From a virus: a DNA stretch of 17,786 bases. The translations under genes were made by a program, and so were the position numbers. The notes below the pieces were generated by a model, which had not been told where the DNA came from, searched no databases, and worked only from the letters and a program-made list of their open reading frames with translations. The stretch lies in the IMG/VR virus record IMGVR_UViG_3300033153_007310; one strand, given 5' to 3'. Shown piece by piece: positions 9,676-10,458 of the stretch (positions are counted from its first letter, which is position 1; the number at the start of each line of letters is the position of its first letter).

Positions 9676-10458
9676 ATGCAGCTAGAACTATTGATAATTG
9701 ACCCGCAGAATGATTTTTGTGACCCAAACGGATCGTTATTCATACCTGGAGCAAACAAGGATATGGAAAGGTTATCCAAGTTTGTTATTCGGGTACTTCA
9801 AAAAATCTCGGACATCCATGTTACAATGGATACCCACCATTTGATTGATATTGCCCATCCGATATTCTGGATTGATTCGGATGGCAATTCGCCGGACCCG
9901 TTTACCATAATAGAATCAGGAAACAATATATGGAGAACCAGAAATCCAACATGGCAGGATAGAGCTGTTGAATATTTACAGTGTCTCAAGGACAACGGTC
10001 GTTATCCTCTGTGTATCTGGCCTCCGCATTGTTTAATCGGACTTCCCGGGCACAACGTATTTCCGGAACTTTCTGATGCATTGACAGCTTGGGAATATCG
10101 CTTTGCCATGGTTGATTACGTCACCAAGGGATCCAATTTCTGGACTGAACATTATTCCGCAGTTCAGGCAGATGTTCCTGACCCCCATGATCCTTCAACT
10201 CAATTGAACACCAAGCTGATTGAAATCCTCAAAAATGCCGACCTTATTGTCCTGGCCGGTGAAGCAAGATCCCATTGTCTTGCCAATACCGTAATGGATA
10301 TCGCCAACAACTTCGGGGAAGACAACATTGCAAAAATGGTTCTTCTTGAAGATGCGTGTAGTGATGTTCCCGGATTTGAAGGTATGGGCGAAAATTTCAT
10401 GAACGAAATGATCGGTAGGGGGATGCAAGTTTCCAACACCTTGGATTTCTTAAGTTAA
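9676..10458 (+). CDS. Isochorismatase-family cysteine hydrolase, nicotinamidase/pyrazinamidase (PncA)-like
   Basis: The N-terminus LLIIDPQNDFC has the catalytic Asp. A metal-site-like stretch is TMDTHHLIDIAHP. YVTKG…HYSAV gives the catalytic Lys and the SYSAF-like motif. LAGEARSHCLANTV gives the nucleophilic Cys. There is an AAAAGGAG SD. It is GC-richer than the backbone. Confidence 0.65.
   Translation: MQLELLIIDPQNDFCDPNGSLFIPGANKDMERLSKFVIRVLQKISDIHVTMDTHHLIDIAHPIFWIDSDGNSPDPFTIIESGNNIWRTRNPTWQDRAVEYLQCLKDNGRYPLCIWPPHCLIGLPGHNVFPELSDALTAWEYRFAMVDYVTKGSNFWTEHYSAVQADVPDPHDPSTQLNTKLIEILKNADLIVLAGEARSHCLANTVMDIANNFGEDNIAKMVLLEDACSDVPGFEGMGENFMNEMIGRGMQVSNTLDFLS

Follow-up and report, generated by a model that had tools for sequence, protein, structure and literature searches.

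A Probable Long-Form Nicotinamidase Encoded at the Head of a vWA/PP2C/Kinase Cassette in Huge Phages and Bacteria

We describe a gene on the viral contig IMGVR_UViG_3300033153_007310 from the IMG/VR collection, all 17,786 bp of which were analysed; this stretch, which appears to be one whole contig, is referred to below as the window. The gene lies at positions 9676-10458 on the plus strand and codes for a PncA-like cysteine hydrolase of 260 amino acids that, to judge from its sequence, is very probably a working nicotinamidase of unusual long form. A conserved cassette common to huge phages and bacteria begins with this gene and continues with those for a vWA-domain protein, a PP2C-type phosphatase and a Ser/Thr protein kinase. 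The best-supported reading of its product is an active, metal-dependent nicotinamidase which, judging from its relatives, would feed the Preiss-Handler route to NAD+. Our best explanation as a whole, namely that an active long-form nicotinamidase is co-transcribed with the vWA protein, the phosphatase, the kinase and a further conserved protein, orf359, within a shared cassette, has in our judgment a probability of roughly 60%. An earlier note on this DNA, made from the letters alone, had described a PncA-like nicotinamidase on a phage-like element, with NAD+ salvage as a possible means of counter-defence. That interpretation is partly supported, but it leaves out the cassette, of which the gene, far from standing alone, is the leading member.

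Results and Discussion

The open reading frame (ORF) at 9676-10458 is confirmed as a real gene. An AAGGAG ribosome-binding site precedes its ATG start codon at a distance of 8 nt, and its product is encoded in identical form on three JGI metagenome contigs on which the gene order is the same. Homologues number 6,071 at E≤1e-3 in a collection clustered at 90%, and 725 clusters of the family are found at E≤1e-30 in a library clustered at 50%.

In order to describe the active site we used a family alignment of 263 sequences, to which all conservation figures given here for the PncA-like protein refer. The catalytic triad comprises Asp9 (in IIDPQNDF), Lys151 (in TKG) and Cys201 (in SHC), and the metal-site motif reads D52-x-H54-H55...H61...H118, the last residue lying in WPPHC, with Asp52, His54 and His118 as the ligands. 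No sequence departs from D9, D52, H54, H118 or K151, and C201 is found in 260 of the 263; all six residues occur together in those 260 members, and the catalytic Cys is missing from the other three. The aromatic pocket is formed by F14 (262/263) and W115 (258/263), A197 of the oxyanion-hole motif is kept in 262/263, and both Y100 and E158 are near-invariant. This match of active-site residues is far beyond chance, and such near-absolute conservation argues for catalysis and shows purifying selection. The Asp/Lys/Cys triad and the DxHH...H metal motif on which the earlier note had relied are thus both present.

A family profile searched against all PDB sequences places yeast Pnc1 at the top (E=1e-20), with ranks 2-7 likewise taken by nicotinamidases, ahead of other isochorismatase-fold enzymes. 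In this search D52/H54/H118 align on the Pnc1 zinc ligands D51/H53/H94, and K151/C201 on K122/C167; the Pnc1 counterpart of D9 we take to be D8. When the window protein itself is used as a phmmer query against the PDB, the M. tuberculosis PncA is matched at E=5e-6. An AlphaFold2 model built from the family alignment (mean pLDDT of 96.3, pTM of 0.92) has the isochorismatase-like α/β fold, and the first 24 matches that Foldseek returns for it from the PDB are all nicotinamidases, from A. baumannii, yeast, P. horikoshii, Leishmania, Drosophila, S. pneumoniae, M. tuberculosis, B. subtilis and S. mutans. Entry 2wta is matched at E=2.4e-16, target-normalised TM-scores for the first nine matches are 0.76-0.84, and carbamoylsarcosine amidase, biuret hydrolase and unnamed isochorismatase-like proteins rank below the nicotinamidases. 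Within the superfamily an Asp/His/His metal site is what marks out the nicotinamidase branch, and it is not known from isochorismatases, carbamoylsarcosine hydrolases (CSHases), RutB or biuret hydrolases. The assignment to the nicotinamidases rather than to a generic isochorismatase subfamily, as first proposed from the motifs, is therefore borne out by the retention of triad, metal site and aromatic pocket, by top profile and fold matches that are nicotinamidases throughout, and by the alignment to characterised PncA proteins, in which the metal ligands are present and fall on the Pnc1 zinc site.

The window enzyme nevertheless belongs to a separate long-form clade of ∼260 aa and is not an E. 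coli-type PncA. With the established PncA enzymes (EC 3.5.1.19; yeast Pnc1 and those of A. baumannii, M. tuberculosis and P. horikoshii) it shares the fold, the Asp-Lys-Cys triad, the Asp/His/His site, the Phe/Trp pocket and the A-x-x-H/x-C motif, and its relatives are linked to pncB, nadE and nrtR. Those enzymes, however, are only 180-216 aa in length as compared with ∼260 aa, identity to solved structures is only 15-20%, and the window-type enzyme has a longer metal loop, Tyr100, a C-terminal extension and, usually, an adjacent vWA gene. The loop connecting the metal ligands H54 and H118 spans 64 residues, as against ∼41 in yeast Pnc1 and ∼20 in M. tuberculosis PncA, and within it is a helix that bears Tyr100. 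The long-form domain is also found in giant eukaryote-like fusion proteins (P0212 and P0237), in one case with ankyrin repeats and an ion-transport domain (1,629 aa) and in the other with DOMON and cytochrome b561 domains (1,452 aa). Such fusions were considered as a clue to the phage cassette and set aside, as their architectures are eukaryote-like and explain nothing there.

The genes that surround the relatives of the enzyme provide a second line of evidence. A total of 80 genome loci and 33 viral loci were fetched and their neighbouring genes clustered; counts of gene order are restricted to loci with at least 4.5 kb of downstream sequence, that is, 31 IMG/VR viral loci and 53 genome loci. 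PncB is encoded directly after the PncA-like gene in Andreprevotia, Chitinimonas, Silvimonas, Iodobacter, Sulfuricella, Cupriavidus, metagenome-assembled genomes (MAGs) of Burkholderiales and a Capsulimonadaceae MAG, and the PncB of such bacterial orthologue loci scores 556 bits with NCBIfam, for a cutoff of 379. NadE and NadM-Nudix often follow PncB in the bacterial loci, and a divergent gene of the Nudix type, NrtR-like, lies upstream. In all, PncB/NAPRT is present in 11 of the 53 genome loci and 8 of the 31 viral loci, in the latter beside the cassette or within it and three times with NadE as well, and the NrtR-like gene in 15/53 genome loci. The viral examples include four in which PncB is inserted between the vWA and PP2C genes (L103, L104, L108 and L118, the first three also with NadE), one in which a NAPRTase-like gene occupies the same place (L092) and two with PncB 6 kb upstream (L098 and L100). 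In a Rhodoferax locus (L046) nadM-nadE-pncB stands beside both nrtR and the cassette.

The nrtR<>pncA-pncB(-nadE) layout has been described for NrtR regulons (Rodionov et al. 2008, PMC2330246), and the bacterial orthologues considered here have the same divergent arrangement together with a palindrome of ∼21 bp. The NrtR-like gene precedes the cassette in Rhodoferax, Accumulibacter, Agitococcus and Variovorax just as it precedes operons of the pncB type, and in both kinds of operon the palindrome, which resembles TTAGTTGCA-N3-TGCAACTAA, is found 35-60 nt upstream of the PncA-like start (bacterial loci L030, L034, L037, L038, L041-L046, L050, L057, L065, L071, L073, L074, L077 and L081). Its core spacing is GT-N11-AC, as opposed to GT-N7-AC in the published NrtR consensus. 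A further difference from the described operons is that many genomes have vWA, PP2C and kinase genes after pncA in place of pncB, and that the phage copy is without regulator or palindrome, the latter being absent from the window. Neighbour-joining does not separate the pncB-linked from the cassette-linked enzymes, which are intermingled in the tree, a Sulfuricella enzyme of the pncB type, for example, being sister to the Rhodoferax/Agitococcus cassette type, and the two therefore constitute one orthologous family. The shared NrtR-like gene and palindrome, the presence of PncB and NadE within cassettes and the interleaving in the tree tie the cassette to NAD+ metabolism, rather than leaving its adjacency to chance. 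The bacterial operon context speaks strongly for the family doing the job of PncA, and with the conserved triad and metal site, the matches of the model and the nrtR<>pncA-pncB-nadE operons of the orthologues the call of nicotinamidase is well supported.

The cassette itself is widespread. Among the 31 viral loci the order PncA-like>vWA>PP2C>kinase is found in 26, and at least one gene of the triad in 29. The full cassette is present in 14 of the 53 genome loci, vWA and kinase in five more and vWA only in a further two; cassette-bearing loci include those of Myxococcota, Rhodoferax, Accumulibacter, Agitococcus, Acidobacteria, Planctomycetota and Patescibacteria. Three huge genomes of uncultured phages in GenBank (595, 485 and 462 kb) also carry it, two in full and one as vWA and kinase, with PP2C not detected. 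The PncA-like and vWA genes adjoin in most loci and are the tightest pair, being the only two present in L004, L008, L028, L081 and L089. In a literature search we found no paper linking a nicotinamidase to the vWA/PP2C/kinase set.

In the window five genes, beginning with the PncA-like gene, follow one another on the plus strand with gaps of 25, 44, -4 and 11 nt. The vWA-domain protein (10484-11239, 251 aa) was assigned from its family alignment and from Pfam VWA matches in relatives, this domain being matched by 6 of 24 members of the 251-aa family with a best E of 5e-6. Its MIDAS motif is complete, D45-x-T/S-x-S49, T114 and D150, with D45, S49, T114 and D150 invariant, and the C-terminus forms a Ser-rich tail (FVSxSISSQSQALGTG) in which three serines are invariant. 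The PP2C-type Ser/Thr phosphatase (11284-12105, 273 aa) matches Pfam PP2C_2 with 42.8 bits, for a cutoff of 24, and its place in the cassette is conserved. The start of the Ser/Thr protein kinase gene (12102-13781, 559 aa) overlaps the PP2C stop by 4 nt. The kinase was recognised from its catalytic residues and family profile: the N-terminal domain has a Gly loop (G21, G22), K35, the catalytic D129/N134 and D148, all conserved across the family with the catalytic residues invariant, and although the window sequence scores 25.3 bits with Pfam Pkinase, under the cutoff of 31.7, 17 of 22 family members do match Pkinase and the family profile matches solved Ser/Thr kinases at E=5e-6. For the C-terminal ∼300 aa no Pfam family was matched in any of the 22 members, and no Cys-rich ribbon motif is found in the sequence of the window kinase.

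The fifth gene, orf359 (13793-14872, 359 aa), begins 11 nt 3' of the kinase gene and codes for a conserved protein with no assigned function. Its family comprises ∼400 proteins of ∼370 aa in which many Trp, Arg and Pro residues are invariant and for which neither a Pfam domain nor a fold relative was detectable. The gene often shares a contig with the PncA-like gene and lies within the cassette in L088 and L097; among the closest phage relatives orf359 counts as an accessory part of the cassette.

A mechanism can be proposed in which Cys201 would attack the carboxamide of nicotinamide, Asp9 and Lys151 completing the triad, with a divalent metal on Asp52/His54/His118 positioning the pyridine nitrogen and the ring sandwiched between Phe14 and Trp115; the products would be nicotinate and ammonia. 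The PncA-like gene would be co-transcribed with those of the vWA protein, PP2C, kinase and orf359. Nicotinamide, released for example by defence systems of the NADase type, would be fed into the deamidated (Preiss-Handler) route to NAD+, the later steps of which would fall to host PncB, NadD and NadE or to copies elsewhere in the phage genome. The kinase/phosphatase pair may switch the state of the vWA protein, with the invariant Ser-rich tail as the probable site, and the vWA protein in turn may bind, control or localise the nicotinamidase. A role in counter-defence against NADase systems is plausible because nicotinamide is the product of NADases and because phages are known to rebuild NAD+.

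A number of observations weigh against this explanation. A nicotinamidase by itself does not restore NAD+, and the removal of nicotinamide would compete with salvage of the Nampt type; moreover, the validated pathways NARP1, NARP2 and NARP3 are without this enzyme. The proposal that pncB-, nadD- or nadE-like genes be sought elsewhere on the element has succeeded for relatives, where PncB, NadE and NadM are found, and failed for the window, whose ORFs gave no matches to PncB, NAPRT, NadD, NadE, NadM, Nampt, Prs, PnuC or NadR and in which tblastn with PncB, NAPRT, NadE and NadM returned nothing significant. With PncB, NadE and NadM absent from the window the nicotinamidase alone cannot rebuild NAD+ on this element, and if the phage does not have the remaining pathway elsewhere then host PncB, NadD and NadE must be needed. 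The vWA, PP2C and kinase genes match no PADLOC or NCBIfam model. As to the enzyme, we could find no enzyme assay for any member of the long-form family, the window protein as a single sequence only just passes Pfam Isochorismatase (27.8 bits, cutoff 27), and it fails the NCBIfam PncA equivalog NF008623 with 31.5 bits for a cutoff of 174.

That low equivalog score, along with the extended loop and its Tyr100, which could alter the substrate to, for example, a nicotinamide-containing nucleoside or nucleotide, and with public annotations of homologues that are no more specific than 'cysteine hydrolase family protein' or 'nicotinamidase-related amidase', is what might be expected of a cysteine hydrolase acting on another substrate, be it nicotinamide mononucleotide (NMN), nicotinamide riboside, a modified base or some other aromatic amide, and bearing no relation to NAD+ depletion. 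We regard this as improbable, as the Asp/His/His hallmark is in place, other isochorismatase-fold enzymes rank below every nicotinamidase by both fold and profile, and the direct linkage to PncB in many genomes is as expected if the product is nicotinate, the substrate of PncB.

The three genes downstream of the nicotinamidase invite comparison with TerY-P. In two papers (PMC4978471 and PMC11090510, citing Anantharaman, Iyer and Aravind 2012) the TerY-P triad is defined as a TerY-like vWA protein, a PP2C and a Ser/Thr kinase and is proposed to act as a phosphorylation switch, related modules being reported there as anti-phage, also when they stand alone. The present cassette has the same three domain types in one operon, a complete MIDAS motif and a location in mobile, conflict-associated DNA, the comparison with TerY being by domain type. 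TerY-P is linked to ter genes, McrBC/CoCoNuT and DNA-processing modules, whereas here a nicotinamidase precedes the triad and NAD+ salvage genes are linked to it; TerY-P kinases, both CoCoNuT-linked and stand-alone, are described as ending in a zinc ribbon or an OB fold, whereas here the C-terminal ∼300 aa belong to no family recognised by sequence. The present triad is, in addition, phage-borne and without a match in PADLOC, which recognised neither any of the cassette proteins nor any of the 24 vWA family members. NCBIfam offers no named family for the vWA protein, the kinase, orf359 or the major vault protein (MVP)-like protein encoded upstream.

It might be asked, then, whether we are dealing with a TerY-P-type module for signalling or conflict, in which the nicotinamidase-like protein is mainly a sensor or an effector and not an enzyme of housekeeping salvage. 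As a sensor, it would detect nicotinamide released by NADases and relay the signal via the vWA protein and the kinase; as an effector, the switched-on enzyme would strip nicotinamide from the cell and so starve competing phages, or the host, in so far as these rebuild NAD+ through Nampt. The triad architecture is that of the published definition, and modules of this kind have been reported as anti-phage systems in their own right. The PncA-like and vWA genes are also the most conserved pair, on their own at some loci, the catalytic Cys has been lost in 3/263 family members, and the RtcB, RNase H and DNA ligase genes nearby are of the repair or counter-defence type. Against this, the near-absolute conservation of catalytic and metal residues argues for catalysis, orthologues in ordinary pncA-pncB-nadE operons that share the NrtR-like gene and the palindrome point to NAD+ homeostasis and not to a toxic effector, and the cassette proteins have neither a PADLOC match nor, in the sequence of the kinase, a recognisable zinc-ribbon/OB-fold C-terminus. 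On balance we consider such a sensor or effector role unlikely, if worth keeping in mind.

Phage NAD+ salvage as such is known already. The pathways described are NARP1 (Adps+Namat), NARP2 (Nampt+Nmnat) and NARP3 (PnuC+NadR), none of which uses a nicotinamidase; pncB-nadD-nadE clusters are known from jumbo phages, phage pncA has been mentioned in passing and a few giant viruses have annotated nicotinamidases. Like the window enzyme, the NARPs are phage-borne, act on nicotinamide or its derivatives and are plausibly selected by NAD+-depleting defences. They differ in that the window enzyme belongs to the deamidated route and makes no NAD+ by itself, and in that no NARP includes a kinase/phosphatase/vWA set; none of the NARP genes is found among the window ORFs. 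What appears to be new is the coupling of NAD+ salvage to a TerY-P-like triad.

The description of the element as phage-like, made at the outset from the letters, is reasonable. PHROG matches were obtained for RtcB, RNase H, an ATP-dependent DNA ligase and three phage families of unknown function, and there are in addition a Phage_ABA_S domain, a tail-fibre-like ORF and close relatives both in IMG/VR contigs and in huge-phage genomes. A sister contig of 22.8 kb (L001) adds little beyond the window. In L001 the PncA-like protein, vWA protein and kinase are identical to those of the window, while the PP2C gene of the window (11284-12105) is 27 nt shorter than that of L001 (11609-12457), the proteins being of 273 and 280-282 aa with 97% identity, and orf359 has 359 as compared with 372 aa, so that the assemblies are close variants and not copies.

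Part of the cassette looks as if it had recently been replaced or acquired from a source of higher GC content. The GC content at third codon positions (GC3) is raised in the PncA-like (0.44), vWA (0.43), orf359 (0.37) and MVP-like (0.40) genes, while the other window genes are at 0.13-0.23, including PP2C (0.18) and kinase (0.23). Such a difference would fit a gene that reached the contig by mis-binning or chimeric assembly and is plain bacterial cargo, or else a recent passenger with no function for the phage. Yet three JGI samples independently gave assemblies of this contig structure, genes of the cassette are found in 29/31 viral loci as well as in huge-phage genomes (460-595 kb), and the active site is under purifying selection; cargo or a passenger of this sort is very improbable indeed.

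Upstream of the nicotinamidase gene lies a non-coding spacer of 204 nt (9472-9675, plus strand) with a GC content of 47%, as compared with ∼30% in its flanks, which shares the raised GC of the PncA-like and vWA genes that follow. The earlier note had placed a putative regulatory leader beside the gene, a suggestion that we reject: the spacer matches no Rfam family at E≤1, its RNA fold has a z-score of -1.6 with 12 of 200 shuffled sequences folding equally well, and in blastn and tblastx searches only near-identical contigs are matched, with no conservation in the other related loci. A scan for promoters and terminators gave counts no better than those for shuffled sequence.

Several other genes of the window deserve mention. 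On the plus strand, RNase H (RVT_3/RNase_H), RtcB RNA ligase (382 bits) and ATP-dependent DNA ligase genes flank the cassette at 7066-8885 and 16173-17303, making up a nucleic-acid repair neighbourhood whose RNase H and ligase genes are shared by L088. The MVP-like protein, of 853 aa (4109-6670, plus strand), matches the shoulder domain of the major vault protein (E=4e-22) as well as a vault repeat, but nothing in PHROG, PADLOC or NCBIfam; its GC3 of 0.40 is far above that of its neighbours, and among the fetched loci the gene is present only on near-identical contigs, which places it outside the cassette. An ORF of more than 752 aa on the minus strand (1-2256) runs off the start of the window; it has a repetitive, coiled-coil-like end (NQTNISNNQTDISNL...), its PHROG matches are weak, and its appearance is that of a tail fibre or other structural protein. 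Also on the minus strand, and thus transcribed opposite to the main block of genes, is a 216-aa protein (2545-3195) with an N-terminal zinc finger of the Ros/MucR type (E=1e-6), the only clear DNA-binding regulator in the window. Cysteine pairs abound (CIGCGFCC...CGAG...C...CC) in the product of a short ORF of 84 aa (6740-6994, plus strand), which matches no family and might bind metal. The window contains no tRNA genes.

Concluding Remarks

The work defines a large clade of long-form nicotinamidases, which at E≤1e-30 amounts to more than 700 clusters when grouped at 50% identity. More tentatively, the cassette, with orf359 in some phages, may possibly represent an undescribed module for signalling of the NAD+ state, in which a switch like that of TerY-P would be wired to nicotinamide turnover, held in bacteria under NrtR-like, ADP-ribose-responsive repression and captured by huge phages to sense and override NADase immunity, thereby providing a regulated, deamidated route as a fourth form of phage NAD+ reconstitution. 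We offer this as a conjecture that would more readily prove wrong than right.

NAD+ depletion is among the commonest outputs of bacterial immunity, and NARP1-3 all rebuild NAD+ via amidated intermediates. A cassette led by a nicotinamidase and present in most of the viral relatives found would add a deamidated route, and it would join a eukaryote-like kinase/phosphatase/vWA switch to NAD+ metabolism. That an NrtR-like gene and the palindrome precede this cassette in bacteria such as Rhodoferax and Accumulibacter gives TerY-P-like triads a concrete, testable metabolic partner.

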